Shown one piece after another: positions 32,463-55,799 of a stretch of 64,000 bases of DNA. Numbering within the stretch: position 1 is the stretch's first letter; each line of letters begins with the position of its first letter. The notes under the pieces were generated by a model, which had not been told where the DNA came from, did not search any database, and saw only the letters and a program-made list of their open reading frames with translations. Both the position numbers and the translations under genes were made by a program. Source of the DNA: Escherichia phage ECP2303. Where the stretch lies: sequence record PP261279.1; one strand, given 5' to 3'.

Positions 32463-33017
32463 TTACTCCCCGCTGTCAATAGCAAGACTCATTGCAATAC
32501 GGTATGCCTCTTCTAATGGTAAGAGTCTCCCCCACACATCCCAACCGACATCAAACTGCCTGCCAAACAACTGCTGTGTGGTTCCGTGAGCATGACCGAA
32601 CAGTTGGACTGATCCGTGAGGCTTTCTGTTCCACTTTGCAAACTGGTAATGGCTCATACAGATCAAATTCTTGTTGTGGCGAAGCTCGTAATAATCTACA
32701 ACCTCATGACCGAACTCTTTCATAATTCTGACAGTCGTTCTTGTGTCATGGTTACCACGAACAAGAATAATATGTCCGTTCAACATATTTAGAACATCTG
32801 GAAGCAGTTTGTTGATATTCTTATCATTAGTGCACGCAATATCCCCCAAGTGAAACACAGTGTCTGCAGGTGACACAACAGAGTTCCACTTGGTGATGAT
32901 TCCCGCATTCATACTGTCAAGATTGTGATCATACTGAGATCTGTGTTTTTGACATGAGTCGAACTCCATTACCCGCTGGTGGAGAAAGTGTGTGTCGCTT
33001 GTTACAAAGTATTTCAT
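32463..33017 (-). CDS. calcineurin-like metallophosphoesterase (putative RNA/DNA 3'-phosphatase)
   Basis: Start at ATG 33017 (GAGGAA RBS); motifs SDTHF, GDIACT, GNHD, GHAHG correspond to metallophosphatase motifs; coupled to the kinase gene. Confidence 0.65.
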   Translation of the reverse strand: MKYFVTSDTHFLHQRVMEFDSCQKHRSQYDHNLDSMNAGIITKWNSVVSPADTVFHLGDIACTNDKNINKLLPDVLNMLNGHIILVRGNHDTRTTVRIMKEFGHEVVDYYELRHNKNLICMSHYQFAKWNRKPHGSVQLFGHAHGTTQQLFGRQFDVGWDVWGRLLPLEEAYRIAMSLAIDSGE

Positions 33018-33024
33018 ACATTCC

Positions 33025-33435
33025 TCATTTAAGTTTAATGCAGTTTTTAAGCTGGCGTTCCATACGATCCACAACCCTGTCTGGAACATCATGAATGCTT
33101 TTATTACCATGGCGGTTTTCAACCACGATCACGGTATAACTATATCCATGACTGATCGCCATGTCAATATATTCTTGCACATATTTTTCTTTTGTAAACG
33201 TATTACTTACCACGATACGGTCGTAGCCCATACGCATCATATCTTCTACGTTATCTTTGCACCATTTTGCTGCAAGTGTTACTTTACTTGCATCCCAATT
33301 GTAATTGCCGTCATCGTCGTACCAGAACATATCGTTCTCAAAATGTGGATACAGACCTTCTAAAGATAGCGCATTTGCCAGTGTTGATTTGCCAGACCCT
33401 GGTAGACCACGCACGATATATAGCATTTTAGACAT
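33025..33435 (-). CDS. P-loop polynucleotide kinase-like protein
   Basis: Start at ATG 33435 (GGAGAG RBS); Walker A GLPGSGKST near N-terminus as in T4 Pnk kinase domain; 136 aa. Confidence 0.6.
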   Translation of the reverse strand: MSKMLYIVRGLPGSGKSTLANALSLEGLYPHFENDMFWYDDDGNYNWDASKVTLAAKWCKDNVEDMMRMGYDRIVVSNTFTKEKYVQEYIDMAISHGYSYTVIVVENRHGNKSIHDVPDRVVDRMERQLKNCIKLK

Positions 33436-33463
33436 AGTAACTCTCCGTTTTAATTTTAATGAT

Positions 33464-33492
33464 AGTATACCTAACTGTTTTGTTAATTTCAA
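33464..33492 (-). promoter_or_regulatory. sigma70-type promoter for the kinase/phosphatase operon
   Basis: Minus-strand TTGAAA, 17-nt spacer, TATACT; about 30 nt upstream of the kinase start. Confidence 0.4.
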
Positions 33493-33495
33493 GTG

Positions 33496-33524
33496 TTGAC
33501 ACCAGGTTATTTGTGTGGCAGAAT
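33496..33524 (+). promoter_or_regulatory. sigma70-type promoter opening the plus-strand block
   Basis: TTGACA, 17-nt spacer ending TGTGG, then CAGAAT; divergent from the minus-strand promoter. Confidence 0.4.
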
Positions 33525-33556
33525 AAAGGGACAAAATGACAAATGAGGAATGTATG

Positions 33557-34471
33557 ATGAAGTATTTTAATGCAGACGACCTGGTTGACAAAGGTCTTGT
33601 AACCAGCAGATATTACCCAGATCTTGGATTAAAGATCTACAAATATGCCAGAAAAGTATTCTACAACAATTTATGGCATTTGTCTCCGCGTTTACTAGAG
33701 TGCCGAGGCATTGTTGTCGGTAATGAAGGAAATGTTGTGGCATGGCCCTTCACAAAAGTGTTTAATTTGGGAGAAAACTCCACCAACCTGCCTGACAATA
33801 AACTTGTGACGGCGGTAGAGAAAAAGAACGGATTCCTTGGTGTGGTATCATCTCATAAAGGTGAACTATTGTTTTCAACAACCGGGTCTCTTGATTCTCC
33901 ATATTGTAACCTTGCAAAGGAAACCATCCAGGAGCAATGTGGTAATTTAGATCTCATCAAAAAGGTTATGGGCCATGAAAACATGACATTCATGTTTGAA
34001 ATTTGTCACCCTTCAGATCCGCATATTGTTCAGGAAGACCATGGCGCATATTTGATAGGTTGCAGATATAACGATTCTGGAATAATGCTACCAGAAGCAG
34101 CTTTAGATGGGATTGCCAAATACCTTGGTGCAAAACGTCCTCACACTGTGCGTGAAATTCCGTTCAGCTATGCAAAAGAATTAGCTGCAGAAACAAGAGG
34201 TGAAGGGTATATGATTCGTAAGCCTTACTACCCTTATGATCTGCAGCTGAAGATCAAGTCTCCATACTATTTGGCACGGAAGGCCGTAATGAGGGGTAAA
34301 GCTTGGAAGATTTGGGATGATGATATCTTTAAACGTATTGACGAAGAGTTTTACGGCATGGTAAACTTCATTCGTAACAATTACACAGAAGATGTGTGGA
34401 ACTGCCTCCTAGAGCAGGAACGCCGTGAGATACTTGACTGCTATTTCCACAACGAGGACTATATGCAATGA
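33557..34471 (+). CDS. RNA ligase 1 (T4 RnlA-like)
   Basis: LECRGIVVGNEG and FNLGEN match T4 Rnl1 (LECRGIMFEMDG, FNLNEN); nucleotidyltransferase motif I KKNGFL matches KEDGSL; start assigned to ATG with GAGGAA RBS (track start 33536). Confidence 0.75.
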   Translation: MKYFNADDLVDKGLVTSRYYPDLGLKIYKYARKVFYNNLWHLSPRLLECRGIVVGNEGNVVAWPFTKVFNLGENSTNLPDNKLVTAVEKKNGFLGVVSSHKGELLFSTTGSLDSPYCNLAKETIQEQCGNLDLIKKVMGHENMTFMFEICHPSDPHIVQEDHGAYLIGCRYNDSGIMLPEAALDGIAKYLGAKRPHTVREIPFSYAKELAAETRGEGYMIRKPYYPYDLQLKIKSPYYLARKAVMRGKAWKIWDDDIFKRIDEEFYGMVNFIRNNYTEDVWNCLLEQERREILDCYFHNEDYMQ

Positions 34472-44231: not shown

Positions 44232-44239
44232 CAAGTAGA

Positions 44240-44266
44240 GGGAGGCTTGCGCCTCCCTTTTCCTTT
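44240..44266 (+). terminator. Rho-independent terminator
   Basis: GGGAGGC-uugc-GCCUCCC followed by TTTTCCTTTT. Confidence 0.7.
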
Positions 44267-44276
44267 TGGAGGCACT

Positions 44277-45083
44277 TTGAGCAAGAAAGAGTCCAACGAC
44301 AAATATTACACAGACCCCGAGTATGCAGAATATCTTGTTGGTAAAGTAAAAGGTAAGTATGGGAATTGTGCATACGTTGAGCCTTCTGCTGGAAAGGGTT
44401 CTTTTTCAAAACTATTTTCAGAGATACTGTCGTATGATTTGGTACCAGATCCTGAATTTGAAGGCCCAACCCCGTGTATTAAGGCAAACTTCTTAGAGGT
44501 GTATCCCAAGGCTGATGTATTCATAGGTAATCCTCCATTCGGCAAAAATTCGTCTTTAGCTTGCAAGTTCTTTAACCACTGTGCATCATTGCTAGAGCCT
44601 GGTGGAGCTATAGCCTTCATCTTGCCACGGACTTTTGAAAAAATATTTTTTGCAAACAAACTGGACATGTCGATGCACCTTATTTATAGCGAAAGGTGCC
44701 CCAAGAACTCGTTTTTACTTAACGGCAAACCTTATGACGTGCCATGTGTTTTCCAAATTTGGGAGAAAAAGGTGTGCAGTAGGGATCCTGTAGAGATCGG
44801 GGAGAATAAGTTATTTTCTTTTAGCACTCCGGATGATTACGACTTCTGTATAAGACGTGTTGGGTATAATGCTGGGAAAGTATTGGGAGAGGATGACCCA
44901 AAATCTGAAGAATCAACATATTTCATAAAATCTTTAGTTGATGGTGTTGACAGAGTGTTTGCTGAGTGCTATTCTTCTTTTCAAGAAGAAGCAGGTAAGA
45001 CTGCTGGAATGAAGAGTATAGGCAAGAAAGAACTACAATACATTTTGGAGACCAGGTATGATCAAAAGCATAGACTTGACTAA
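44277..45083 (+). CDS. DNA N6-adenine methyltransferase
   Basis: Motif I VEPSAGKGSF and motif IV NPPFG; start moved to TTG 44277 (GGAGG RBS) because the track start 44247 lies inside the terminator hairpin. Confidence 0.75.
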   Translation: MSKKESNDKYYTDPEYAEYLVGKVKGKYGNCAYVEPSAGKGSFSKLFSEILSYDLVPDPEFEGPTPCIKANFLEVYPKADVFIGNPPFGKNSSLACKFFNHCASLLEPGGAIAFILPRTFEKIFFANKLDMSMHLIYSERCPKNSFLLNGKPYDVPCVFQIWEKKVCSRDPVEIGENKLFSFSTPDDYDFCIRRVGYNAGKVLGEDDPKSEESTYFIKSLVDGVDRVFAECYSSFQEEAGKTAGMKSIGKKELQYILETRYDQKHRLD

Positions 45084-45516
45084 AGAGCTTTCCGATGCAA
45101 AAGCTTTTGGTGAGACAGCCGTGCAAAGGGGACAGGCTATGGGGCTGGCACTACCTTTTGTCTTAAAAGAGCATTTTACAGATTTTCAGCTTATCCGGGG
45201 TGAAAAGGGTATGCTTATTCTGGAACATAAGCTGAGTAAGAAACGTTATAAAGTTGTTTTTAATTCTAAAGCTCCAACAAAACTTGGATTCAGAACTTAC
45301 AATCTCAACCCTTCTTATACTAAGGGTGTTGGAAGAGTGGAGCAGCAGCATTTCAGTGCTAGAGCTTCTTTAGCCCCTTTGATGATAAATTTCTCAGGTG
45401 TGGCTTTAGGATACCTAGATAAGAAAAGAGTTCTTCATGTTCGTTTTACAGACTTTGTAACGCTTTTAGCTAACAACGAAGTAGATGAAAAGGGACGTGT
45501 AAAAACAAACTTCTAA
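45058..45516 (+). CDS. hypothetical protein
   Basis: 152-aa ORF. Confidence 0.35.
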   Translation: MIKSIDLTKELSDAKAFGETAVQRGQAMGLALPFVLKEHFTDFQLIRGEKGMLILEHKLSKKRYKVVFNSKAPTKLGFRTYNLNPSYTKGVGRVEQQHFSARASLAPLMINFSGVALGYLDKKRVLHVRFTDFVTLLANNEVDEKGRVKTNF

Positions 45517-45531
45517 TAACGCACAATATGA

Positions 45532-45735
45532 TTGGAGACCGCAATGACACCAGAGTTAACAATTCCAGACAGCTTTTCAGAAGACTTTGTTCCAGAGATG
45601 ATGGGGAAGATGCGAACACTACTTGATCAGATTGAGGAGGCTGTTTGGGAAGATGATGCTGTAGTGGCTAACGAGCTGGTAGATAAGTGTAAAAGTATTA
45701 TTGATGCAGTCGAAGAATATCACGGAGGTTTTTAA
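45532..45735 (+). CDS. hypothetical acidic protein
   Basis: 67-aa ORF with GGAGAC RBS. Confidence 0.35.
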   Translation: METAMTPELTIPDSFSEDFVPEMMGKMRTLLDQIEEAVWEDDAVVANELVDKCKSIIDAVEEYHGGF

Positions 45736-46349
45736 TGGATATTATTGTTCTTAATGCCCCACCAAGTTCTGGAAAAGACCATATCGCAGATCTTTTGTTG
45801 GAAGCTATTCCAAACTCGCATCACCGCGAGGTAAAGGAAATGCTATTCAGCGTGGCAATTAAGGCAGCAGGTATTTCACCACAGTTGTGGAATGCATTCT
45901 ATGATCGCCGCTATAAAGAAGAGCCGTGCCCGTTCTTGATGATCGATGGCAAGCACGTTTCTCCTCGTGAGTGGATGATCCATTGTAGCGAGGCCCTGAT
46001 TAAACCTGTATTCGGCAGTGATGCCTTCGGAAAGGCCAGTGTTGCTTCTCTGGAGAAAGATTTCCCAGAAGGTAAAGGGGTTGTTGTTTACTCCGATGGT
46101 GGCTTCAAAGAGGAGCTGGCATGCCTTAGCGAGTACGCATACAGCACAGGTGGAGATCTGTTGTTGTTCCGTATTCACCGGGCCGGATATGACTGGGGAA
46201 ATGATTCCAGAACCTATCTAAGTCTGGAAAAGAACGGAATAAAAGGAATTGAGTTCGATGTTGTAAACCCTGAAGGTGCACCTTGGGAATGTGCATCGGA
46301 GATTGTGTGCAAGTATATTGATGCTAAAGAGGCCCAAGAAGAATGTTAA
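45735..46349 (+). CDS. P-loop kinase, dNMP kinase-like (T4 gp1-like)
   Basis: N-terminal Walker A LNAPPSSGKD comparable to T4 gp1 LSGVKRSGKD; 204 aa. Confidence 0.5.
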   Translation: MDIIVLNAPPSSGKDHIADLLLEAIPNSHHREVKEMLFSVAIKAAGISPQLWNAFYDRRYKEEPCPFLMIDGKHVSPREWMIHCSEALIKPVFGSDAFGKASVASLEKDFPEGKGVVVYSDGGFKEELACLSEYAYSTGGDLLLFRIHRAGYDWGNDSRTYLSLEKNGIKGIEFDVVNPEGAPWECASEIVCKYIDAKEAQEEC

Positions 46350-46936
46350 TCGGAATTGATGTAGATTTGACACTGGTAGATTCAGGAACAGCATGGTGGG
46401 AGTGGTTGGAGCGTTTGTATGGTCCAGCCAGTAAGACAGTTGCTAAACCTTCTAACGGACTGATGTATTACGATCTGTCAAAGTATTGGCCTGATCGCCC
46501 CAAAGAAAACATCATAGGGCCTTTTGATTTCTGGAGTGATCCGTTCCTCTACGACTTTCTTAAGCCTGAAGAGGGGGCTATTGAGGTTATGAAAGATTTG
46601 GTGGCTCGTGGTCACAAGCTTGCATTTATCTCGGTATGCAAGAAAGGTCACCTTGCATCTAAATCAAGGTTCTTAAAGCGTTGGACCAGTGATTTTATGG
46701 ATCTGGACGATCACACCCAGGGCCACGGCTTCTACGCCACACATTTCAAAGGTAATGTGGCTGTAGATGTTATAATTGACGACAGGCATGAATACCTGAA
46801 CCAATTCGCTTCACGCCCTGAAGTTATTAAAATCTTAAAAGACACTCCTTATGAGCAATTCGAGGAGTTGAAGGTCAGTGTTGACTATACCACCAATAGT
46901 TGGTATAAAATAGGAAAGTTTTTAGAAGGTATTTGA
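46343..46936 (+). CDS. HAD-superfamily phosphatase (putative 5'-deoxynucleotidase)
   Basis: Motif I GIDVDLTLVDS (DxDxT) and C-terminal IIDDR. Confidence 0.6.
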   Translation: MLIGIDVDLTLVDSGTAWWEWLERLYGPASKTVAKPSNGLMYYDLSKYWPDRPKENIIGPFDFWSDPFLYDFLKPEEGAIEVMKDLVARGHKLAFISVCKKGHLASKSRFLKRWTSDFMDLDDHTQGHGFYATHFKGNVAVDVIIDDRHEYLNQFASRPEVIKILKDTPYEQFEELKVSVDYTTNSWYKIGKFLEGI

Positions 46937-46937
46937 A

Positions 46938-47138
46938 ATGGGCAGATGTTCTAAAGGTGGCGATCCTGTAGTCAGATACGGTGACTGGCTAGAGGTATAT
47001 GATCTTGGAGGTAAGCTAGTGTATGCCTCCAGGATCACCCAAGACATGTGCTCTGATATGTTTAACAGATACCTTGCATTTAAGGCCAACATAAACCCAG
47101 ACGAAATTTCCAAAATTAAAACAAGGAGAGCTAAATAA
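46938..47138 (+). CDS. hypothetical protein
   Basis: 66-aa ORF. Confidence 0.3.
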   Translation: MGRCSKGGDPVVRYGDWLEVYDLGGKLVYASRITQDMCSDMFNRYLAFKANINPDEISKIKTRRAK

Positions 47139-48121
47139 TGCTAAAACTGTGCACTGCAAAGATTATTGCCGACAGTATTTCCGAGAAAGGTAAGCGTATC
47201 ACCACTTTTGAGCTAGAGTATCCTCGAATTATTCACTCAGAGCTTATGACACATCGAGTGTTCAGCCGAAACGCCATGTCTTCTCGTGCAGTTCCTGTCG
47301 GTAAGATGCTGCAGCAGATCGTGGAGAATCCGGCAATGCCAGTTCGCTTCGGTGTAAATAAGCGAGGGATGGAAGATGGTGGGGAACACGATCAAAAGAT
47401 CCGTGTAGAGTATACCGACATGGAGTTAACTCCTGAAGAGTTTTGGAAAGAAGCTGCAAAAAACGCCGCGTGGCATGCAGAGAAGTTCGCCCTTGCTGGT
47501 TACCATAAGCAGGTATGTAATCGCTTAGTGGAGCCGTTTCAGCGCATGAAAACAGTTGTAACAAGCACCGAGTGGAATAATTTTTTCCACCTGCGTTGCT
47601 GGCACGATGCTGATCCTACGATTCAGATGCTGGCTAATTGTATGTGGGATGCTCTTATGAATAGCACTCCTGAAACCCTTAAACCGGGTCAATGGCACAC
47701 CCCATATGTAGAGCACGTTTATTTGGACGGTGAGTTTAACTACGCTGTACGTGACACAGAAGGGAAGCTATGCATTCTCGATACTAAAGAAGCCCTATCT
47801 ATTAGTGCTAGTTGCTGTGCACAAGTATCTTATCGAAATATTGACAGCACGTTTGAAAAGGCAGACAGTGTGGCTAAAAAATTGATTGGCGGGGATCGTA
47901 TTCATGCAAGCCCTTACGAGCACCAGGCAACACCTATGGATCACGATAACGCAATGGAACGTTTAAACTACTACCTGTCTTCATGTGAAATCACACAGGA
48001 CAGCTGTGTTTGGCAGGAAGGTGTAACCCATCAAGACCGTGATGGTAAATTCTGGTCTGCCAACTTTTGTGGGTGGGTTCAGCACAGACAGCTGCTTAAT
48101 AACCACTTCATGAAAGGTTAA
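47138..48121 (+). CDS. thyX: flavin-dependent thymidylate synthase (ThyX-like)
   Basis: ELMTHRVFSRNAMSSRA resembles the ThyX RHR-x7-S signature; 327 aa. Confidence 0.65.
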   Translation: MLKLCTAKIIADSISEKGKRITTFELEYPRIIHSELMTHRVFSRNAMSSRAVPVGKMLQQIVENPAMPVRFGVNKRGMEDGGEHDQKIRVEYTDMELTPEEFWKEAAKNAAWHAEKFALAGYHKQVCNRLVEPFQRMKTVVTSTEWNNFFHLRCWHDADPTIQMLANCMWDALMNSTPETLKPGQWHTPYVEHVYLDGEFNYAVRDTEGKLCILDTKEALSISASCCAQVSYRNIDSTFEKADSVAKKLIGGDRIHASPYEHQATPMDHDNAMERLNYYLSSCEITQDSCVWQEGVTHQDRDGKFWSANFCGWVQHRQLLNNHFMKG

Positions 48122-48150
48122 TCCTATCACAGCGATAGGTAACTTTTGTG

Positions 48151-48179
48151 TTGACTAATAGTATTAGATAATCTATAAT
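48151..48179 (+). promoter_or_regulatory. sigma70-type promoter
   Basis: TTGACT, 17-nt spacer, TATAAT; preceded by hairpin CCTATC-acagc-GATAGG at the thyX stop. Confidence 0.5.
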
Positions 48180-48219
48180 AATGGCTCACTTTGTTGGTGA
48201 GCCAGAAATGGAGACAGAT

Positions 48220-48681
48220 ATGAGTAATGTTATGATTCCTAAAAAGACATTTATTTCAGTTACTTTAGATTTCCTATCTACTGTTCCCGGATTTAACGTT
48301 CGCACACGAAACGGTCTCCGAGCTGCACTCTTTGCTGTAGGGTTTGATTTAAAAAATATTGATGTTCTTCGTGGAAAAAACGTTCGATGCAAAAATAAGC
48401 CAACACATTATAGAAAGGCAGATGTATTTGCTGGTGTCATGCGTGCAGACTTTAGATACCCGCAAATGTATAACGGTGTAGATATTTTAGATGTAGATAA
48501 AGCACCCGATGAGGCAATGCTTGTTCAAGATCTTCCCTATGATATCCCTGTAGAAGATCGTGTTAATGTAAGAAAGTATACAAAACAATCTGAAAAGGCT
48601 GAAGATATTCATATTGTTGATGAACCTTTCAATTTTGAAGATCTGCATCGCCTGGAAAAATTATTCGGTATTGAAAGCTAA
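48220..48681 (+). CDS. hypothetical protein
   Basis: Start assigned to ATG 48220 (GGAG RBS 6 nt upstream); the track start 48181 lies within 2 nt of the -10 hexamer. Confidence 0.4.
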   Translation: MSNVMIPKKTFISVTLDFLSTVPGFNVRTRNGLRAALFAVGFDLKNIDVLRGKNVRCKNKPTHYRKADVFAGVMRADFRYPQMYNGVDILDVDKAPDEAMLVQDLPYDIPVEDRVNVRKYTKQSEKAEDIHIVDEPFNFEDLHRLEKLFGIES

Positions 48682-48691
48682 GGTGGTGAAG

Positions 48692-48922
48692 ATGAGTCAT
48701 AACTCCAAGTGGAAGGATCTTGGTTTTGCAAGTCGGGCAGAATATGTTGGTTGGCTTTGGTTCAACGGTCTGACAAACGATATTAAAATGTATGATGATG
48801 TTTACTATGACGAGTATACAGGTAAAATTATAAATATCTCTGTAGAAGAGGATACCTTTGTCCAGCAAGATACTGATACCTGCCTTGATAAATACGTTGA
48901 TGAAGTGGAGGAAGCAAATTGA
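48692..48922 (+). CDS. hypothetical protein
   Basis: Start at ATG 48692 with AAGGTGGTG RBS; 76 aa. Confidence 0.4.
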   Translation: MSHNSKWKDLGFASRAEYVGWLWFNGLTNDIKMYDDVYYDEYTGKIINISVEEDTFVQQDTDTCLDKYVDEVEEAN

Positions 48923-51234
48923 TCACCAAGGTAATTAAAAGCAACGGATGTGAAGTGGCATTCGATCCAGAACGTTTAAATAAGGCGGCTATTTTCGGTG
49001 ACGACGGTAACGGCAATTGGTCACATATTGCACTGGATGCATACAAGCGGCTGTATGATGGATGTACAACCAAAGAAGTTAACCAAGCTATTATAGACTC
49101 TTGTGTTAGCCGTAAAGACGAAGCACATTCCCGTATGGCTGGTCGTGTTCTTATTGGTCAGATTTATAAAGAGGCTTTTGGAGGGTTTACAAAGATCCCT
49201 TCCTTACCATCATTTTACAATACCATGGTTGAGAAAGGGTATTGGGAGGATATGGGTTATAGCTTTACCGAGCTAAACACTTTAGACGCTGTTATTGACC
49301 ACAGTAAAGATCTCGGTTATGGCTATGCAGTCCTTAAACAGTTTCGAGACAAATACGGGATCAAGGATACTCTTAAAGACACCCTGTTCGAATCTCCACA
49401 GATGATGTTTATGGGGATAGCGATGGCTGTCATGAAAAATATGCCGAAAGAACGCCGTATTGACGATGTTGTAAAATTATACACTTATCTGTCAGACTTA
49501 AAGATCAATGCCCCGACACCGTACTTAAACGGTCTACGCACAGGTAAGACAGGGTATGCATCTTGTTGTGTAATAAAAGCTGACGATACAGCAAAATCTA
49601 TTGGTGTGGCACGTGAAGTTGCGTACACAATGACGGTTAACCAAGCAGGTATCGGCTACTATTTATCATCAAGATCTGCAGGCGATGGTGTTCGTGGTAA
49701 CACTATTAAACATATGGGTAAGATTCCATATTATCGAGGTATTGATGCTGGGGTTAAGGAGAACAGACAACAATCACGTGGCGGTTCTGCAACAGTATCA
49801 TTCCTTGCACTGGACCCGCAGATTGATGAGCTAATCCGTTTGAGAAACCCTATGACTGTTGCTTCAAAAAGAATCAACACCATGGACTACTCCATCGGTA
49901 TTAATAGGTCGTTTATCAACCGTGTGGCTAAGAATTTAGATTGGATGCTTGTTTCTTATAAGCACGCTCCTCAACTGCATGAGGGTATCTTCACCATGTC
50001 TATGGAGGAGTTTGATGCAGAGGTTGAGCGTATTGCTAAAGATGACAGTATTCCTAAAACATGGATCCGAGCCAGAGATCTTGCTGTTGAACTGATCACG
50101 CAGCGTACTGAGGTGGGAAGGCTGTATGTATACTGGACAGATGAGATGAATAGACATACACCTTTTAAAGATGTGATCTATTCAAGTAACCTGTGTGCAG
50201 AAATAGCCCTCCCGACAAAAGGCTATTCAGATATGCGTAATATCTTCAAGTACGATGCTGATGATGGAGAGGTTGCATTGTGCTTCCTGTCATCTCTTGT
50301 AGCTGGAAGGGTTACTCCAGAGGAGTATGAGGATGTTGCATACTACACGGTGCTTATGATTGACAATGTTATGGAAATCATGACATATCCGTATGAAAAT
50401 ATGGAAAGCACAGTTAAAAAACGCAGATCCATCGGGGTTGGCCTTACCAATGTTGCACATTTTATTGCCAGCCACAAGGTTACTTACGGATCTCCTGAAA
50501 GTAAACAGCTCGTTCACGATCTTGCAGAACTTCACAGCTACAGCTTGCATAAGGCAAGTTTACGGTTGGCAAAAGAGCGTGGTGTCTGCGAGTGGATGCA
50601 TAAAACAAAATATCCAGAAGGTTGGTTACCAATCGACACCTATAACAAAGAGGTCGATAGCGTGGTGAAAGATCCTTCTCTTAAACAGGATTGGGAAGGG
50701 TTACGTAAAGAAATCATTGAAAATGGTGGGCTACGTAATAGCGTTCTTGAAGCATATATGCCTAATGAAAGCTCTTCGCTGGCAACAAACACCACTAACG
50801 GGGTTTATCCTGTCCGTGAGCACATTATCTTTAAAAAGTCGCCACAAGGGCAGGTGCTGTTTATCGTTCCTGACTATGATGAGTTGAAAGAGTATTACAC
50901 TTCGGCTTGGGACGTTGATACTAACGACATGATCGATATGTATGCTGTGATTCAAAAATTCACAGGTCAGGCAATCAGCGCGGATTTATACATAGACTAC
51001 ACCAAGTTGAAAGATGGTAAAATTTCAATGAAGGAGCAGCTAGGGTACCTTATCCGTGCCACTAAATTCGGGATGAAGACATGGTATTATTTAAACTCTA
51101 GGGTTGGTGCTGGTGACTCCTTGGCAGAGGAACTTCATGCCAAGAAACAGGCTGAAGATGAAACCAGAAAGAATTATCCTTTGATTGCAGATAGTTCAGT
51201 TGAAGATCCGTATTGCGAAAGTTGTGCACTATAA
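48919..51234 (+). CDS. nrdA: ribonucleotide reductase class I alpha subunit
   Basis: N-terminal ATP-cone, SNLCAEIALPT active-site region; TTG start with GGAGGA RBS; 771 aa. Confidence 0.9.
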   Translation: MITKVIKSNGCEVAFDPERLNKAAIFGDDGNGNWSHIALDAYKRLYDGCTTKEVNQAIIDSCVSRKDEAHSRMAGRVLIGQIYKEAFGGFTKIPSLPSFYNTMVEKGYWEDMGYSFTELNTLDAVIDHSKDLGYGYAVLKQFRDKYGIKDTLKDTLFESPQMMFMGIAMAVMKNMPKERRIDDVVKLYTYLSDLKINAPTPYLNGLRTGKTGYASCCVIKADDTAKSIGVAREVAYTMTVNQAGIGYYLSSRSAGDGVRGNTIKHMGKIPYYRGIDAGVKENRQQSRGGSATVSFLALDPQIDELIRLRNPMTVASKRINTMDYSIGINRSFINRVAKNLDWMLVSYKHAPQLHEGIFTMSMEEFDAEVERIAKDDSIPKTWIRARDLAVELITQRTEVGRLYVYWTDEMNRHTPFKDVIYSSNLCAEIALPTKGYSDMRNIFKYDADDGEVALCFLSSLVAGRVTPEEYEDVAYYTVLMIDNVMEIMTYPYENMESTVKKRRSIGVGLTNVAHFIASHKVTYGSPESKQLVHDLAELHSYSLHKASLRLAKERGVCEWMHKTKYPEGWLPIDTYNKEVDSVVKDPSLKQDWEGLRKEIIENGGLRNSVLEAYMPNESSSLATNTTNGVYPVREHIIFKKSPQGQVLFIVPDYDELKEYYTSAWDVDTNDMIDMYAVIQKFTGQAISADLYIDYTKLKDGKISMKEQLGYLIRATKFGMKTWYYLNSRVGAGDSLAEELHAKKQAEDETRKNYPLIADSSVEDPYCESCAL

Positions 51235-51273: not shown

Positions 51274-52362
51274 ATGGCTGTATTTAATGCTGAGAACACC
51301 GCTCATAAAACTGGTGATTATCCGCTGTTTCTAGGACAGCAGATGGGGATGTACGACTCTATTAACAAAAAGTACCCACAACTGTTTGAACTATATAAAA
51401 AACAAAAAGAACAGGATTGGGCAGAGGACGAAGTAGATTTGTCACAGTCTATTTCGGATTTCGTAACATGCTCAAAGTCAACTTACGATGTGATGGTGCA
51501 GACACTGATGTGGCAATGGGAGGCAGACAGTGTTGCAGCAAGATCTATCATTTGCCTGTTTTCACCATTTATCACCAATAGTGAGCTTTTCACCTTGTTG
51601 ATGAAGCAGTCTGAGATTGAGGTTCTTCATGCACTAACTTACTCAGAGATTGTTAGACAATGCCTTCCTAATGCTCGTGAGATTATAGAAGAGATCCAGG
51701 AAAACCAGAACGTGCTGAGCAGATCTGGAGTTATTGTCAAATATATGCAAGAGCTTGAGGTTATTGGTGCAAAATACCGACTGGATACTTCCAGTGTTGA
51801 AGAAGATGTTGTACGGAAATGTATCCTTAGAGCACTTTTTGCACTTTTAGCTTTAGAAAGTATTGAGTTTATTGCAAGTTTTGCATGTACGTTCGCAGTA
51901 GCTGAGCAAGGTATTTTTGTTCAAGTGGCACAACTTGTTCAAAAAATTATGCTTGATGAAATGCTGCATTCGAAAGGTGATTTTGCTATCATCGATATCC
52001 TGCTTGATGATCCTGCATGGGAGCAAAGCTTCCTTGAGATTAAGGGTGAGTTAAAAGAAATTCTTGACGAAGTGCGGACCAAGGAGTACGGTTGGAGTGA
52101 CTATATTTTCAGCGAAGGAAGAGCGATTATAGGTCTTAATTCACCGTTGCTTAAAGAATGGGTTGACTATAACTGCTCACCGATTTATGATTATTACGAC
52201 ATCGACAAAGACTTTGTGCCGCCAACAAAAGACCCGCTACCGTTTATGCAGGTGTGGATGAAACCTTCACTGCAACAGACGGCTAACCAGGAAATGTCTA
52301 ACACCGACTACCGCGTCAACACAACCGTTAACGACGCTGAAGAAGAAATTTGGGAGTTTTAA
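51274..52362 (+). CDS. nrdB: ribonucleotide reductase class I beta subunit
   Basis: Di-iron ligand pattern (EVLHALTYSE, ESIEFIASFACTF, DEMLHS); 362 aa. Confidence 0.85.
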   Translation: MAVFNAENTAHKTGDYPLFLGQQMGMYDSINKKYPQLFELYKKQKEQDWAEDEVDLSQSISDFVTCSKSTYDVMVQTLMWQWEADSVAARSIICLFSPFITNSELFTLLMKQSEIEVLHALTYSEIVRQCLPNAREIIEEIQENQNVLSRSGVIVKYMQELEVIGAKYRLDTSSVEEDVVRKCILRALFALLALESIEFIASFACTFAVAEQGIFVQVAQLVQKIMLDEMLHSKGDFAIIDILLDDPAWEQSFLEIKGELKEILDEVRTKEYGWSDYIFSEGRAIIGLNSPLLKEWVDYNCSPIYDYYDIDKDFVPPTKDPLPFMQVWMKPSLQQTANQEMSNTDYRVNTTVNDAEEEIWEF

Positions 52363-52365
52363 TAT

Positions 52366-52644
52366 ATGAGCTGCGAAAAATCTTTTTTCATCATCATTTA
52401 CGGCAAGGATAACTGCCCACATTGTGTAAGAGCAAAAGAATTTGCAGTCAGCAAAGGCATACCTTTCGTATACAAGACGCTAGGTGAGGGATACACAAAA
52501 GAAGAGCTTATCGAGAAGTGTAGCCCATTTGTTCCCAGAACGTTGCCTCAGATCTTCTTGGAAAGCAACCTTGACAGTATCCACATAGGTGGTGCTGACG
52601 ATTTCATCTCTTTTGTTAAGAATGGTTTTGGAGAGAAAAAGTGA
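52366..52644 (+). CDS. glutaredoxin-like protein
   Basis: CPHC active site (KDNCPHCVRAKEF); 92 aa between nrdB and nrdD. Confidence 0.7.
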   Translation: MSCEKSFFIIIYGKDNCPHCVRAKEFAVSKGIPFVYKTLGEGYTKEELIEKCSPFVPRTLPQIFLESNLDSIHIGGADDFISFVKNGFGEKK

Positions 52645-54761
52645 AAGTTGTAAAACGGGACGGTAGAGAAGAGTTTTATAACGGAATTAAGGTGATCAAG
52701 GCGGCAGAGTCCGCCTTACTTGAGTCTGGACATACTGAAGAAGAAGCTTACCGGATTGCCTGTGCGGTTAATGAAGTTGTTGCCAACAATCTGCCAACCG
52801 ACCAGTGCACGATCTCTGTAAAAAATATCCATATCCTTGTTGAAGATGCTCTTATGGATATGGGTTTAAAATGTGCAGCCAGAGAATACATCCAGTATAG
52901 ACAGACAAGAGATAATAACAGAGAGGCAGGTGGAAAACTGCTTGCAGATATTAGTGGCTTCTTGGATCGTACTTGTGATGAATTTACAAAAGAAAACGCA
53001 AATAAGCCTACTAATCATGTACACACTCATCGTGACCTGCTTGCAGGTATCCTTAGCAAACACCTTGCATCAACACAGATCCTGCCAGATCGTGTCTCAG
53101 AAGAGCACAACAAGGGCTTCATCCATGTGCATGATCTTGACTACTTGATCAGCCCGTTAACAAACTGTTGTTTGGTGAATTATCCGGATATGCTGGAAAA
53201 CGGATTCAACATTGGCAACGCCCATGTCAGTAAGCCGAAGTCAATAGGGGTTGCAACAACAATCCTTAGCCAAATCTCTAGTGCAGTAGCTAGTGCTCAA
53301 TATGGCGGTCAGACCATGAGCCATATTGATCATTATCTGGCACAGTATGCTGAAGCAACCTATGAGAAGAACCTTAAATTTTGTCAGGAACATTGGTTGC
53401 CAGATGCTGAGACTGTTGCAATGCAAATGACAGATAAAGACGTGTTTGATAGTATGCAAACTTTGCTCTACCAAATCAATACGTTAACTTCTGTCAACGG
53501 GCAAACTCCATTCATCACACTAAGTTTAGGGCTGGATACCTCGGTCTTTGGTAGAATGATTACCAAAAACTACTTGAAAGTTCACAAAATGGGTCTCGGT
53601 GAAGAACGGATCACACCTGTGTTCCCTAAAGTGCTGTTCTTCTTAGAGGAGGGTGTCAACATGAACCCTGGGGATCCTAACTATGATTTGAAACGATTGG
53701 CATTAGAATGCTCTGCAGAGCGGATTTATCCTGACTTTGTTTCTGTTCCGCTAAATCGTAAAGTGACAGGTTCAACAGACGGCAAAGTAACAAGCATGGG
53801 ATGTAGGTCGTTCCTTGGAAAATACGTTACACCGGAGGGTGATGAAAAATACCTTGGCAGATTCAACTTGGGTGTTGTTAGCCTTAACCTACCAATGATT
53901 GCGGCAAAAGCTAAGACGGAAGGTATTGATTTCTTTGCAGTTCTTGACGAATACTTGGATCTTGCATACGAGGCTCACCTTGTAAGGGTTAACCGTCTAA
54001 AAGGAACAAAGGCAGGGCAGAACCCTATCATGTGGTGTGAAGGAGCTCTTGCTCGCCTGGATCCTGAAGAGAGTATCGATAAACTCTTCTATGACGGGTA
54101 CGCTTCCATCAGTATTGGGTATATTGGTGTGTATGAAACCTGTCAGATTTTGGGTAGAGAGGGTGACAAGGCTTTAGCTCTTGAAATCCTTCAGCACATG
54201 AGAGATGCTTGTGAGCGATACAAGAAGGAAAGTAGACTAGCATTTAGCTTGTACGGCACTCCTTCTGAGAGTCTATGCTATAAAGCTGCAACCTGTCTGG
54301 ATCGTGAATATCCGGAAGTGTTGAAGCACGAGCATGAATATCTCACCAACAGTTTCCATCAGCCAGTATGGATAAATAGCTCCCCTTTTGATAAGTGGGA
54401 GTATGAGGAAGGTTTTGCTATGATCTCCTCCGGTGGCAACATCGGATACGTAGAGACACCTAACCTGAAAAACAACCTGGATGCTTTAGAGGCTCTTGTT
54501 GACTTCGGGTATAAACATATTATGTATTTTGGTATTAACCAACCTGTGGATAAATGTCTCAAGTGTGGTTTCTCTGGTGAGTTCAGTGCAACAGCTAAAG
54601 GCTTTGTATGCCCAGAGTGTGGAAACCATGAAGAGGGAACGATCAGTGTAATTCGACGTGTGTCTGGATACCTTTCCAGTCCTAACTCCCGTCCTTACAA
54701 TAAAGGTAAGCAAGCGGAAGTTATCGAGCGAGTTAAGCACTATGGAAGTTGTAGTTGCTGA
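52641..54761 (+). CDS. nrdD: anaerobic ribonucleotide reductase (class III)
   Basis: C-terminal CLKCGFSGE...CPECG zinc site and glycyl-radical motif RVSGYL; 706 aa. Confidence 0.9.
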   Translation: MKVVKRDGREEFYNGIKVIKAAESALLESGHTEEEAYRIACAVNEVVANNLPTDQCTISVKNIHILVEDALMDMGLKCAAREYIQYRQTRDNNREAGGKLLADISGFLDRTCDEFTKENANKPTNHVHTHRDLLAGILSKHLASTQILPDRVSEEHNKGFIHVHDLDYLISPLTNCCLVNYPDMLENGFNIGNAHVSKPKSIGVATTILSQISSAVASAQYGGQTMSHIDHYLAQYAEATYEKNLKFCQEHWLPDAETVAMQMTDKDVFDSMQTLLYQINTLTSVNGQTPFITLSLGLDTSVFGRMITKNYLKVHKMGLGEERITPVFPKVLFFLEEGVNMNPGDPNYDLKRLALECSAERIYPDFVSVPLNRKVTGSTDGKVTSMGCRSFLGKYVTPEGDEKYLGRFNLGVVSLNLPMIAAKAKTEGIDFFAVLDEYLDLAYEAHLVRVNRLKGTKAGQNPIMWCEGALARLDPEESIDKLFYDGYASISIGYIGVYETCQILGREGDKALALEILQHMRDACERYKKESRLAFSLYGTPSESLCYKAATCLDREYPEVLKHEHEYLTNSFHQPVWINSSPFDKWEYEEGFAMISSGGNIGYVETPNLKNNLDALEALVDFGYKHIMYFGINQPVDKCLKCGFSGEFSATAKGFVCPECGNHEEGTISVIRRVSGYLSSPNSRPYNKGKQAEVIERVKHYGSCSC

Positions 54762-55092: not shown

Positions 55093-55329
55093 ATGATAGG
55101 TGTCTGTGTAAAAGCTAACAGATGGTTTACATTCGGTAAGGATTACGAAATTATCTTTCATTCGGACAGAGCCACAACAGTAGAAAGCGATGATGGGTGC
55201 CACTGGTTCGTTAGTTACCATGGTGATGGGTATTATAGATCTACTGATTCCAGAGGGGAAGAAGCTGTTTTCTTGGATAGAGCTTATTGTGGGCCTGAAT
55301 ATCCTTACCTAAAAGAGGATAAGGAATGA
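55093..55329 (+). CDS. hypothetical protein
   Basis: 78-aa ORF with AGAGAGG RBS, coupled to nrdG. Confidence 0.4.
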   Translation: MIGVCVKANRWFTFGKDYEIIFHSDRATTVESDDGCHWFVSYHGDGYYRSTDSRGEEAVFLDRAYCGPEYPYLKEDKE

Positions 55330-55799
55330 ATGTTGTTAATATTATAGAGTGTAGCATGGTTGACGGCCCAGGCATTAGGACAACGGTGTTCTGTTCTGGT
55401 TGCCCACATCACTGCGTCGGTTGCCAAAACAAAAGTGTTTGGTCGCCAGCTAAAGGGGAACCGTTAACAAATGACACTATTGAGAGTATACTTCACTCTA
55501 TAGAGCCGAAACACATTACTGGCGTTACATTATGCGGTGGCGAACCTTTAGCGCCTTACAATATTGAGGGTATGTACTCGATCATTCGCGCTATCCGTGA
55601 ACACTTCGGCAACACAAAAACTATCTGGGTGTACACAGGGTATTTGTTTGAAGAGGTTCCCGATTACATTAAAGATAGTGTCGATTACATTATGGATGGT
55701 AAGTACGAAAAAGATAACCCAACCAAAAAACCCTTCAGAGGTAGTGATAACCAAAGAATGTTTAAAAAGGTAGCAGGTGGTTGGGTTCAGGTTGACTAA
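55326..55799 (+). CDS. nrdG: anaerobic ribonucleotide reductase activating protein (radical SAM)
   Basis: CSGCPHHCVGC cluster and GGEPL motif; 157 aa. Confidence 0.85.
   Translation: MNVVNIIECSMVDGPGIRTTVFCSGCPHHCVGCQNKSVWSPAKGEPLTNDTIESILHSIEPKHITGVTLCGGEPLAPYNIEGMYSIIRAIREHFGNTKTIWVYTGYLFEEVPDYIKDSVDYIMDGKYEKDNPTKKPFRGSDNQRMFKKVAGGWVQVD

Follow-up and report, generated by a model that had tools for sequence, protein, structure and literature searches.

The window, by which the whole analysed stretch of 64,000 nucleotides is meant, contains at 45735-48121 a cluster of four tightly packed genes on the + strand. The nrdA-nrdB-grx-nrdD-nrdG block follows some 0.8 kb downstream. The cluster and the adjacent features were as follows.

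44237..44260, + strand: terminator-like hairpin with a 10 bp stem, 6 GC pairs and a T-rich tail after it (consensus scan only)
44277..45083, + strand: N6-adenine DNA methyltransferase (phrog_5172/phrog_799; weak Pfam Eco57I/MTS matches)
45058..45516, + strand: 152-aa conserved protein (phrog_9938)
45544..45735, + strand: 63-aa conserved protein, its stop overlapping the kinase start (phrog_7393)
45735..46349, + strand: T4 gp1-type deoxynucleoside monophosphate kinase, 204 aa, P-loop NAPPSSGKD (phrog_139, structure, profile)
46343..46936, + strand: HAD-superfamily phosphatase of the NT5C (5'(3')-deoxyribonucleotidase) family, 197 aa (Pfam NT5C, HAD motifs, PDB profile matches)
46938..47138, + strand: 66-aa conserved ORF, its stop overlapping the ThyX start (phrog_4903)
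47138..48121, + strand: divergent long-form ThyX-like flavin-dependent thymidylate synthase, 327 aa (Pfam Thy1, phrog_85, Foldseek)
48123..48139, + strand: weak terminator-like hairpin directly 3' of ThyX (consensus match only)
48151..48179, + strand: sigma-70-type promoter-like site, near-consensus TTGACT-17-TATAAT, 11/12 (consensus match only)
48181..48681, + strand: 166-aa conserved protein, orf166 (phrog_5557)
48692..48922, + strand: 76-aa conserved ORF overlapping the nrdA start (phrog_5488)
48919..51234, + strand: nrdA, class I RNR large subunit (Pfam Ribonuc_red_lgC 1.4e-100, lgN 3.8e-14)
51274..52362, + strand: nrdB, class I RNR small subunit (Pfam Ribonuc_red_sm 1.7e-29)
52366..52644, + strand: glutaredoxin (Pfam Glutaredoxin 2.4e-8)
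52641..54761, + strand: nrdD, anaerobic class III RNR with an ATP-cone at the N-terminus (Pfam NRDD 3.5e-161, Gly_radical, ATP-cone)
55326..55799, + strand: nrdG, radical-SAM activase of NrdD (Pfam Fer4_12 1.4e-38, Radical_SAM)

The methyltransferase gene, which carries the N6-adenine methyltransferase label also in the annotations of ECP2309 and Bas59, is the first in the tightly packed run containing the kinase, HAD and ThyX genes. The hairpin preceding it probably closes the upstream unit with the DnaQ-like exonuclease. The junctions in the order 63-aa ORF, kinase, HAD, 66-aa ORF and ThyX were determined to be -1, -7, +1 and -1 nt, the HAD start overlapping the kinase stop by 7 nt. The 66-aa ORF was absent from the initial annotation. 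The idea that this ORF is a detached N-terminus of ThyX, or that a frameshift occurs here, was rejected: a beta-strand at the N-terminus is already part of the ThyX ORF, and the full-length homologs share its start position.

The RNR block of nrdA, nrdB, glutaredoxin, nrdD and nrdG was found as initially described, with Pfam matches for all five genes. Its adjacency to the cluster was also confirmed, while the wording "immediately upstream" was slightly loose: two small ORFs, a hairpin and the promoter-like site lie between ThyX and nrdA. Transcription of the RNR unit probably starts at the promoter-like site, although in the consensus scan the total number of such sites was not above the number in shuffled sequence. 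The true start of orf166 is probably near 48220. The label 'thymidylate synthase' given to orf166 in some GenBank records, a possible sign of a second such enzyme, had no Pfam or PHROG support and was rejected.

With 2 mismatches over its 64 kb, the whole window matched positions 64461-128460 of Escherichia phage ECP2309, a Vequintavirus, and corresponds to the rV5-like type of E. coli phages. The deposited record of this all but identical genome thus already contains the genes of the cluster with annotations, and the labels in the GenBank relatives are dNMP kinase, 5' nucleotidase and FAD-dependent thymidylate synthase. In the rV5 genome paper, the thymidylate synthase and RNR genes were placed under nucleotide metabolism (PMC3606486). 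The cluster is therefore ordinary and already known, consisting of the nucleotide-supply genes expected of an rV5-like phage.

The description of the first protein as a gp1-like P-loop kinase was confirmed by profile and structure. T4 gp1 and the window kinase matched phrog_139 ('dNMP kinase') over the same profile span, with E-values of 1.8e-65 and 9e-43, respectively. In a Foldseek search with the AF2 model of the kinase (pLDDT 91), ranks 1 and 2 were occupied by the T4 gp1 chains 1dek_A and 1dek_B (E 9e-6, TMq 0.61). A family profile of 134 kinase sequences was aligned with T4 gp1 by hhalign over the full length (172 columns, E 4e-10, 96.7% probability). The P-loop of the window kinase, NAPPSSGKD, resembles GVKRSGKD of T4 gp1, and an Asp follows the Lys in both. 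Among the 134 relatives, G13 and K14 were invariant and D15 was present in at least 90%. The subfamily is large, with 3455 representatives at 50% clustering.

The relationship with gp1 was clear only with the 134-sequence profile and the predicted structure. The window kinase itself gave no Pfam match at E<=0.1, DNMK (PF21448) included, and DNMK matches were detected in 8 of the 134 relatives, all sub-threshold (best 1.4e-5), compared to none for HMUDK. Single-sequence phmmer searches of PDB with the kinase, HAD and ThyX proteins returned nothing useful. With the narrow kinase profile A1, T4 gp1 was aligned over the P-loop only, and an Argonaute match of a 21-sequence kinase profile in PDB was considered spurious. 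The likeness to T4 gp1 (PDB 1DEK; PF21448; phrog_139) comprises the shared PHROG, the SGKD P-loop, the full-length profile alignment and the best structural match. In contrast, the two proteins are only about 14–19% identical, the window kinase has 204 aa against the 241 aa of gp1 and lacks the insertions of the latter, and in its subfamily an NT5C-like gene that overlaps the kinase gene typically comes next, whereas none is shown beside T4 gene 1. The assignment of the kinase to the T4 gp1-type dNMP kinase family is supported by these data, and ATP-dependent phosphorylation of dNMPs is the predicted activity.

[quoted passage not shown] According to this reading, the kinase is of the 5-hmdU DNA kinase type and the cluster serves the post-replicative hypermodification of thymidine as in phages ViI, M6, PhiW-14 and SP10. 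The resemblance is generic, as small phage P-loop kinases occur in both cases. In the HMM comparison proposed by the initial annotation, the window kinase fell with T4 gp1 and not with the 5-HMUDKs. The experimentally proven 5-HMUDK, M6 gp54, matched PF18748 (7.7e-18) and phrog_800, whereas the window kinase matched neither. The alignment of the 134-sequence profile with M6 gp54 by hhalign covered only 23 columns of the P-loop with 13% probability, and the P-loop itself is SGKD in the window kinase versus GSGKT in M6 gp54. The 5-hmdU DNA kinases (M6 gp54, ViI gp67/gp243; PF18748) are small phage P-loop kinases like that of the window, with no similarity past the Walker A loop.

The partner enzymes of the hypermodification pathway were sought with M6 gp51 (aGPT-Pplase2), gp52 (PLP), gp53 (rSAM), gp54, gp55 and gp58 (ThyA-type dUMP hydroxymethyltransferase) as phmmer queries. 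None of the 1504 ECP2309 ORF pieces was matched at E<0.03, a negative result of limited sensitivity because the same run with T4 gp1 missed the window kinase; the best matches were short ORF pieces without a corresponding annotated gene. By single-sequence search and annotation together, no dUMP hydroxymethylase, aGPT-Pplase, PLP or radical-SAM hypermodification partner was found in the genome. In addition, 5-HMUDK co-occurs with a dU hydroxymethyltransferase of the ThyA superfamily (PMC5889632), whereas the synthase here is of the ThyX type. Distant homologs of the HAD protein (24% identity, Pfam NT5C 5.8e-8) do occur in the ViI-like Kuttervirus phages, which are thymidine hypermodifiers, but the gene there adjoins the DNA polymerase amid genes annotated only as hypothetical.

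The published phenotypes were in correlation with these results. The Vequintavirinae, including a phage 98% identical to the window, were exceptionally susceptible to RM systems in the in vivo phenotyping of the BASEL collection (PMC8594841). This is the opposite of hypermodified DNA of the ViI/M6/PhiW-14 type, which resists 48–71% of type II enzymes (PMC6449724). When the literature was searched for data on the nucleosides or the restriction cleavage of Vequintavirus DNA, the in vivo RM phenotypes of BASEL were all that was found. Compared to the hypermodification pathway, the window belongs to a restriction-sensitive phage group, and the single-sequence searches and annotation of its phage revealed no hydroxymethyltransferase, aGPT-Pplase, PLP or radical-SAM partners. 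Given the profile, structure, gene-content and published phenotype evidence, a role in thymidine hypermodification can be discounted, its probability being close to negligible.

The second protein had been described as a HAD phosphatase with a DxDxT motif, and this was borne out by its N-terminus MLIGIDVDLTLVD (DVDLT) and the Pfam match to NT5C. The match extended over residues 1-173 and scored 26.5 bits, above the gathering score of 24.8 although low in absolute terms. The HAD motifs D6xD8xT10, S97, K136 and D146-D147 were invariant in the alignment and line up with the motifs of human mdN. With a three-sequence HAD profile, the best matches in PDB were 5'(3')-deoxyribonucleotidases, aligned over the full length and weak in absolute terms (3bwv, E 0.002; human mdN 1mh9, E 0.03). 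The likeness to the NT5C family (human cdN/mdN, PDB 1MH9; 3BWV; PF06941) includes HAD motifs I-IV, the length, the end-to-end alignment and the score above the Pfam gathering threshold. On the other hand, the similarity to these enzymes is very low (E 0.002–0.03, PDB), and the window protein belongs to the phage-specific phrog_420, labelled 'unknown function' in PHROG. The identification as an NT5C-like nucleotidase is supported, and a specificity for deoxyribonucleoside 5'-monophosphates is predicted.

Distant phages share the kinase-nucleotidase pair together with its translational coupling. The order kinase-NT5C-Thy1-x-x-nrdA-nrdB was found again in phage contig L010 with a kinase only 47% identical, which indicates that the clustering is not due to chance. 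The overlap of the two genes was kept where the identity to the window was low (kinase 34% and 47%, HAD 33%), and the neighbours of such distant pairs were a dUTPase, a MazG-type pyrophosphohydrolase, or Thy1 and RNR. The syntenic HAD genes of contigs L007 and L010 had precomputed NT5C matches, unmarked in the former and weak in the latter.

Since PNKP architecture combines a kinase with a HAD phosphatase, the pair could in principle represent a split polynucleotide kinase/phosphatase with a role in the healing of nucleic-acid ends instead of in nucleotide pools. A metagenomic protein, P0304, has a DxDxT HAD-like domain fused to this kinase family, and the domain weakly matched Pfam HAD_PNKP (E 0.0012, below threshold). 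The hhalign comparison of this N-terminal domain with the NT5C-like profile, the PDB search and the genomic context were uninformative. The window HAD itself matched NT5C and not HAD_PNKP in Pfam, the best structural match of the kinase was gp1 with no PNK structure among the top 50 Foldseek matches, and the neighbours across phages were ThyX, dUTPase, a MazG-like enzyme and RNR. Moreover, an RNA-repair-type trio of AAA_33 kinase, metallophosphoesterase and Rnl1 ligase is already present elsewhere in the window (32463-34471). The end-healing function is accordingly regarded as extremely improbable.

The ThyX-type assignment of the third protein was upheld by the Pfam Thy1 match (3.5e-9, 37.2 bits vs 24.8), the phrog_85 match (1e-112) and the structural search, in which the best 50 of 132 PDB matches at E<=0.001 were all ThyX structures. 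The Thy1 match covered only profile positions 60-190, and the score with NCBIfam thyX (TIGR02170), 39.7 bits, was far below the equivalog cut-off of 87.9. In the region of the RHRxxxxxxxS motif, T38-H39-R40...S48-x-R50 was found: the first Arg is replaced by an invariant Thr, and the His, the second Arg, the Ser and the next Arg are kept. Residues H79, R80, S88, R90, N169 and R174 of the T. maritima enzyme have invariant counterparts in the family, N148 and R153 being aligned with the dUMP-contact residues N169 and R174. As a whole, most of the residues that contact FAD and dUMP are still present.

The core fold and these six residues constitute the likeness to known ThyX enzymes (T. maritima TM0449, PBCV-1 A674R, M. 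tuberculosis ThyX; PF02511). The window protein differs from them by the R78 to Thr replacement, by Ala at the positions of both E86 and Y91, by the absence of the usual helical segment at the N-terminus (positions 1-59 of the Pfam profile, with H53) and by an additional C-terminal domain. The latter is a conserved, Cys-rich extension of about 150 aa in which a Cys-Cys pair and the motifs WHTPYV, SCCxQVSYR, HxSPxEH and QxRQ are invariant. More than 1000 phage records contain the same long form, among them ICP1 and PAK_P-like, N4-like and phiCbK-like phages. We take the listed phages to have canonical DNA. The protein would convert dUMP to dTMP with FAD, NADPH and CH2H4folate, the exact chemistry being only putative in view of the sub-cut-off score, the Thr for Arg, the absent counterparts of E86, Y91 and H53, and the Cys-rich domain.

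The atypical features of ThyX, i.e. THR for RHR, the missing E86/Y91/H53 counterparts, the extra domain with the invariant Cys-Cys and the sub-equivalog score, would speak for the cluster being a pre-replicative route to a small non-canonical pyrimidine on the T4 gp42/gp1/gp56 logic. The ThyX-like protein would then yield a dUMP derivative modified at C5 and distinct from dTMP, the kinase would phosphorylate this product and the nucleotidase would clear the canonical competitor. T4 gp1 phosphorylates hm-dCMP and is hence needed by T4, according to an annotation note. A small substituent could still be compatible with the RM sensitivity of the Vequintavirinae, because only about 13% of type II enzymes are completely unable to cut plain 5-hmdU DNA (PMC6449724). 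[quoted passage not shown] Furthermore, the long form is present in over 1000 phage genomes of many well-studied groups, none of those listed being among the hypermodifying groups of PMC5889632, the cofactor and substrate contacts are mostly kept, and no report of a base anomaly in Vequintaviruses was found in the literature. This route is consequently considered very unlikely overall. The same low likelihood applies to its specific form, in which the long-form ThyX makes another C5-substituted dUMP, the kinase channels it into DNA and the NT5C-like phosphatase removes the canonical competitor. If true, the Vequintaviruses and other carriers of the long form would have an overlooked small pyrimidine modification which does not block the tested restriction systems.

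Profile, structure and synteny back the initial reading of a nucleotide-pool cluster, in which the RNR genes are adjoined by ThyX, the HAD nucleotidase and a kinase of the gp1 kind. The genes very probably form a co-transcribed, translationally coupled early/middle Vequintavirus cassette which raises the canonical dNTP supply for phage DNA replication. The families and folds, the overlaps between genes and the conservation of synteny are observed, and the substrates, the direction of flux and the promoter/terminator layout are inferred. In this cassette, the ThyX-like enzyme would convert dUMP to dTMP by the flavin/NADPH/methylene-tetrahydrofolate route, for which no dihydrofolate reductase is needed; no gene is annotated as such in the ECP2309 record. 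The gp1-type kinase would convert dNMPs, originating from ThyX and the breakdown of host DNA, to dNDPs. At the same dNMP branch point, the NT5C-like HAD may dephosphorylate surplus or unwanted deoxynucleotides and thereby balance the pool. The adjacent, putatively separately promoted RNR block would provide deoxyribonucleotides de novo, by NrdAB with glutaredoxin and by NrdDG, under aerobic and anaerobic conditions.

The discovery value of the cluster is small and the useful outcome is the negative one on thymidine hypermodification. Two points are of mild interest. Among phages, the most frequent 'ThyX' of this type is a long form with an altered signature motif. The overlap of the dNMP kinase and NT5C-like nucleotidase genes is kept across very distant phages, and one fusion of the kinase with a HAD-like domain, of unclassified subfamily, was detected.

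The three enzyme genes that the initial annotation placed upstream of the ribonucleotide reductase (RNR) genes, coding for a P-loop kinase, a HAD phosphatase and ThyX, were present as described, and the RNR genes were confirmed by Pfam. The description was correct as far as it went; it left out a 66-aa ORF within the cluster and about 0.8 kb with two small ORFs between ThyX and nrdA. The features of the region are the following.

44237-44260, strong terminator-like hairpin (consensus scan)
45735-46349, plus strand, kinase ORF, 204 aa
46343-46936, plus strand, HAD ORF, 197 aa
46938-47138, plus strand, orf66, 66 aa
47138-48121, plus strand, ThyX-like ORF, 327 aa
48123-48139, weak hairpin 3' of ThyX (consensus scan)
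48151-48179, sigma-70-like promoter site after ThyX, 11/12 consensus match
48181-48681, orf166, between ThyX and nrdA, 166 aa, conserved, phrog_5557

The kinase/HAD, HAD/orf66 and orf66/ThyX junctions were -7, +1 and -1 nt, respectively, a pattern typical of translationally coupled genes. The kinase start overlaps an upstream 63-aa ORF by 1 nt. Based on the hairpins and the promoter-like site, MTase-orf152-orf63-kinase-HAD-orf66-ThyX likely form one transcription unit, and orf166-orf76-nrdA-nrdB-grx-nrdD-...-nrdG likely a second one with its own putative promoter; the boundaries of both are consensus matches rather than functional evidence.

In the GenBank comparison, the region 45000-49000 shared 100% identity with Escherichia phage ECP2309 (PP464953, Vequintavirus), 98% with the BASEL phage Bas59 EduardKellenberger and 90-99% with the remaining 119 matching rV5-like records. 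The whole window corresponds to positions 64461-128460 of ECP2309 with 2 mismatches, and thus represents a phage that has already been sequenced and annotated. About 20-24 records with 99-100% identity to 45000-49000 bear 'Campylobacter phage' names (C5 and C15 among them; MG065659, MG065654 and ~20 more). In these records the host was probably mis-assigned, or a coliphage contaminated the Campylobacter phage preparations.

Sequence searches of Pfam, NCBIfam and PDB with the 204-aa kinase gave no match. The protein matched phrog_139, 'deoxynucleoside monophosphate kinase', with an E value of 9e-43; the T4 gene 1 product (gp1, a dNMP kinase) matches this PHROG along the same stretch of the profile and is also a member of Pfam DNMK. 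The best PDB match of the AlphaFold2 model (pLDDT 91.3) was T4 gp1 (1DEK; E 9e-6, TMq 0.61), followed by generic NMP-kinase folds. The Walker A motif, NAPPSSGKD, has an Asp after the Lys, as has RSGKD of T4 gp1. The kinase family is large, with 3455 representatives at E<=0.001 in an exhaustive profile search. Weak Pfam DNMK matches were detected in 8 of 134 family members, and matches to the 5-hmdU DNA kinase family in none. The profile of these 134 sequences aligned with T4 gp1 over 172 columns (96.7% probability, E 4e-10).

A 5-hmdU DNA kinase had been considered as the alternative. The experimentally proven enzyme of this type, M6 gp54 (PMC8989533), is assigned to Pfam PF18748 and phrog_800. 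The window kinase matched neither of them, and its family profile resembled gp54 only across the P-loop (23 columns, 13% probability). On these HMM comparisons the kinase belongs on the dNMP-kinase side. M6 gp54 (L002:21686-22249, Pseudomonas phage M6) is named 'terminase small subunit' in RefSeq and in phrog_800, a mislabel through which PHROG-based annotation could overlook hypermodification kinases. A kinase homolog of Cronobacter phage EspYZU08 (P0062, 59% identity) is named 'methyltransferase' in GenBank, probably by an annotation slip from the adjoining gene.

The HAD protein begins with MLIGIDVDLTLVD, containing the DxDxT motif, and matched Pfam NT5C with 26.5 bits (gathering score 24.8) over residues 1-173. 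In the alignment with the syntenic counterparts of two distant contigs, the four HAD motifs (D6/D8/T10, S97, K136 and D146-D147) were invariant. The best PDB matches of the small profile made from this alignment were 5'(3')-deoxyribonucleotidases, with alignments spanning the full length (3bwv, E 0.002; human mdN 1mh9, E 0.03). The evidence for a putative NT5C-type nucleotidase is consistent, although weak in absolute terms, and the name '5' nucleotidase' is already used in one GenBank relative. A distant NT5C-family homolog of the HAD protein (24% identity, Pfam NT5C 5.8e-8) occurs in Kuttervirus Sa157lw (L011:5938-6720) and other ViI-like phages, which hypermodify thymidine; there it is located a short way downstream of the DNA polymerase gene. 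Its role there may be, for example, the removal of dTMP.

The pairing of kinase and HAD genes recurs in distant phages. In a 150-kb phage contig (L010, kinase 47% identical) the order is the same, kinase-NT5C-Thy1-x-x-nrdA-nrdB, with overlapping kinase and NT5C genes. In another contig (L007, kinase 34% identical) an overlapping NT5C-family gene follows the kinase and a dUTPase lies nearby, and in Vibrio phage F96 (HAD 33% identical) the gene after the kinase is again an overlapping one of the NT5C family, with a nucleotide pyrophosphohydrolase next. A metagenomic protein of 392 aa (P0304; loci L014, L015) combines an N-terminal DxDxT HAD-like domain with a domain of the window kinase's dNMP-kinase family at residues 198-375; its gene adjoins a DUF5906 primase/helicase-like gene. 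Like the family assignments and the gene overlaps, the synteny of the cluster is shown by these data. Since the partners of the pair are all nucleotide-pool enzymes, a role in nucleotide-pool management is supported by the gene order. These kept neighbours also speak against the reading of kinase and HAD as a split PNKP, an end-healing enzyme. Such a reading is further disfavoured by the match of HAD to NT5C rather than HAD_PNKP, by gp1 as the nearest fold to the kinase, and by a separate trio of genes at 32463-34471. The trio consists of a calcineurin-like metallophosphoesterase (minus strand), a small AAA_33/Zeta-toxin-type P-loop kinase (minus strand) and a T4 Rnl1-type RNA ligase (plus strand), which suggests a tRNA/RNA end-healing and sealing system.

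The ThyX-like protein matched Pfam Thy1 with 37.2 bits (cut-off 24.8) at profile positions 60-190 only, and scored 39.7 against the NCBIfam equivalog, far under the cut-off of 87.9. Its AlphaFold2 model (pLDDT 81.5) had 132 PDB matches at E<=0.001; the best 50 of them were all ThyX (PBCV-1, T. maritima, M. tuberculosis), with E from 1e-5 and TMt 0.38-0.59. The residues were mapped by HMMER alignment to T. maritima ThyX combined with family conservation. The counterparts of H79, R80, S88, R90, N169 and R174 (H39, R40, S48, R50, N148 and R153, respectively) are invariant. R78, the leading Arg of the RHR motif, is replaced by T38, an invariant Thr throughout the long-form homologs, and E86 and Y91 are changed to A46 and A51. 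The N-terminal helical segment, which carries H53 in T. maritima ThyX, is absent. The C-terminus is longer by ~150 residues with invariant WHTPYV, SCCxQVSYR, HxSPxEH and QxRQ; this conserved domain contains an invariant Cys-Cys pair. The long form is common, with >7500 matches in the protein collection and occurrence in 1035 phage records of many genera, ICP1, PAK_P-like, N4-like (G7C) and phiCbK-like phages among them. The simplest reading is that these phages use it as their thymidylate synthase; no experimental study of any member was found.

The possibility that the cluster serves thymidine modification was not supported. The hallmarks of the pathway are a ThyA-superfamily dUMP hydroxymethyltransferase, 5-HMUDK and aGPT-Pplase, often with PLP/radical-SAM enzymes (PMC5889632, PMC8989533). 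These enzymes were found neither among the annotated genes nor by phmmer, a search of limited sensitivity, against all ECP2309 ORFs, and the thymidylate synthase is of ThyX type, not ThyA type. Vequintavirinae are exceptionally susceptible to restriction-modification systems, the tested set including Bas59 (PMC8594841), whereas the hypermodified DNAs of M6, ViI and PhiW-14 are resistant to 48-71% of type II enzymes (PMC6449724). Taken together, a bulky hypermodification is effectively excluded. Plain 5-hmdU DNA is fully resistant to only ~13% of type II enzymes, and 5-hmdU is excised by E. coli AlkA and Mug (PMC6449724); a small pyrimidine substitution is very unlikely.

Judged by what is known of the enzymology of T4 gp1, mammalian cdN/mdN and ThyX, the substrates and flux of the cluster would be as follows. 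ThyX would convert dUMP to dTMP with no need for DHFR, and no dihydrofolate reductase is among the annotated genes of the ECP2309 record. The gp1-type kinase would phosphorylate dNMPs to dNDPs, and the NT5C-like phosphatase would compete at the same dNMP node by removing dNMPs that are in excess or not wanted. De novo deoxyribonucleotides would come from NrdAB with glutaredoxin and from NrdDG. The cluster is a set of ordinary nucleotide-metabolism genes: all three enzymes are already named in GenBank relatives, and in the rV5 paper the genes for thymidylate synthase and RNR are already grouped under nucleotide metabolism (PMC3606486). The residual interest lies in the long-form ThyX and the conserved kinase-nucleotidase pairing.

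For orf166, no Pfam match was obtained; its equivalent is kept in the distant contig L010. The HMD-6 record labels it 'thymidylate synthase', and the ECP26 record has two such features in this region, both without support. As the near-consensus promoter abuts its ATG (its -10 box ends at 48179) and the PHROG match starts at residue 14, the true start is probably near 48220. The nrdD ORF begins with a GTG at 52641 and so overlaps the stop of the glutaredoxin gene; its residues 1-91 match an ATP-cone domain (region concerned, 52641-52850). In the BASEL annotation of Bas59, nrdD starts ~70 codons further downstream, and the regulatory ATP-cone domain is thereby left out.
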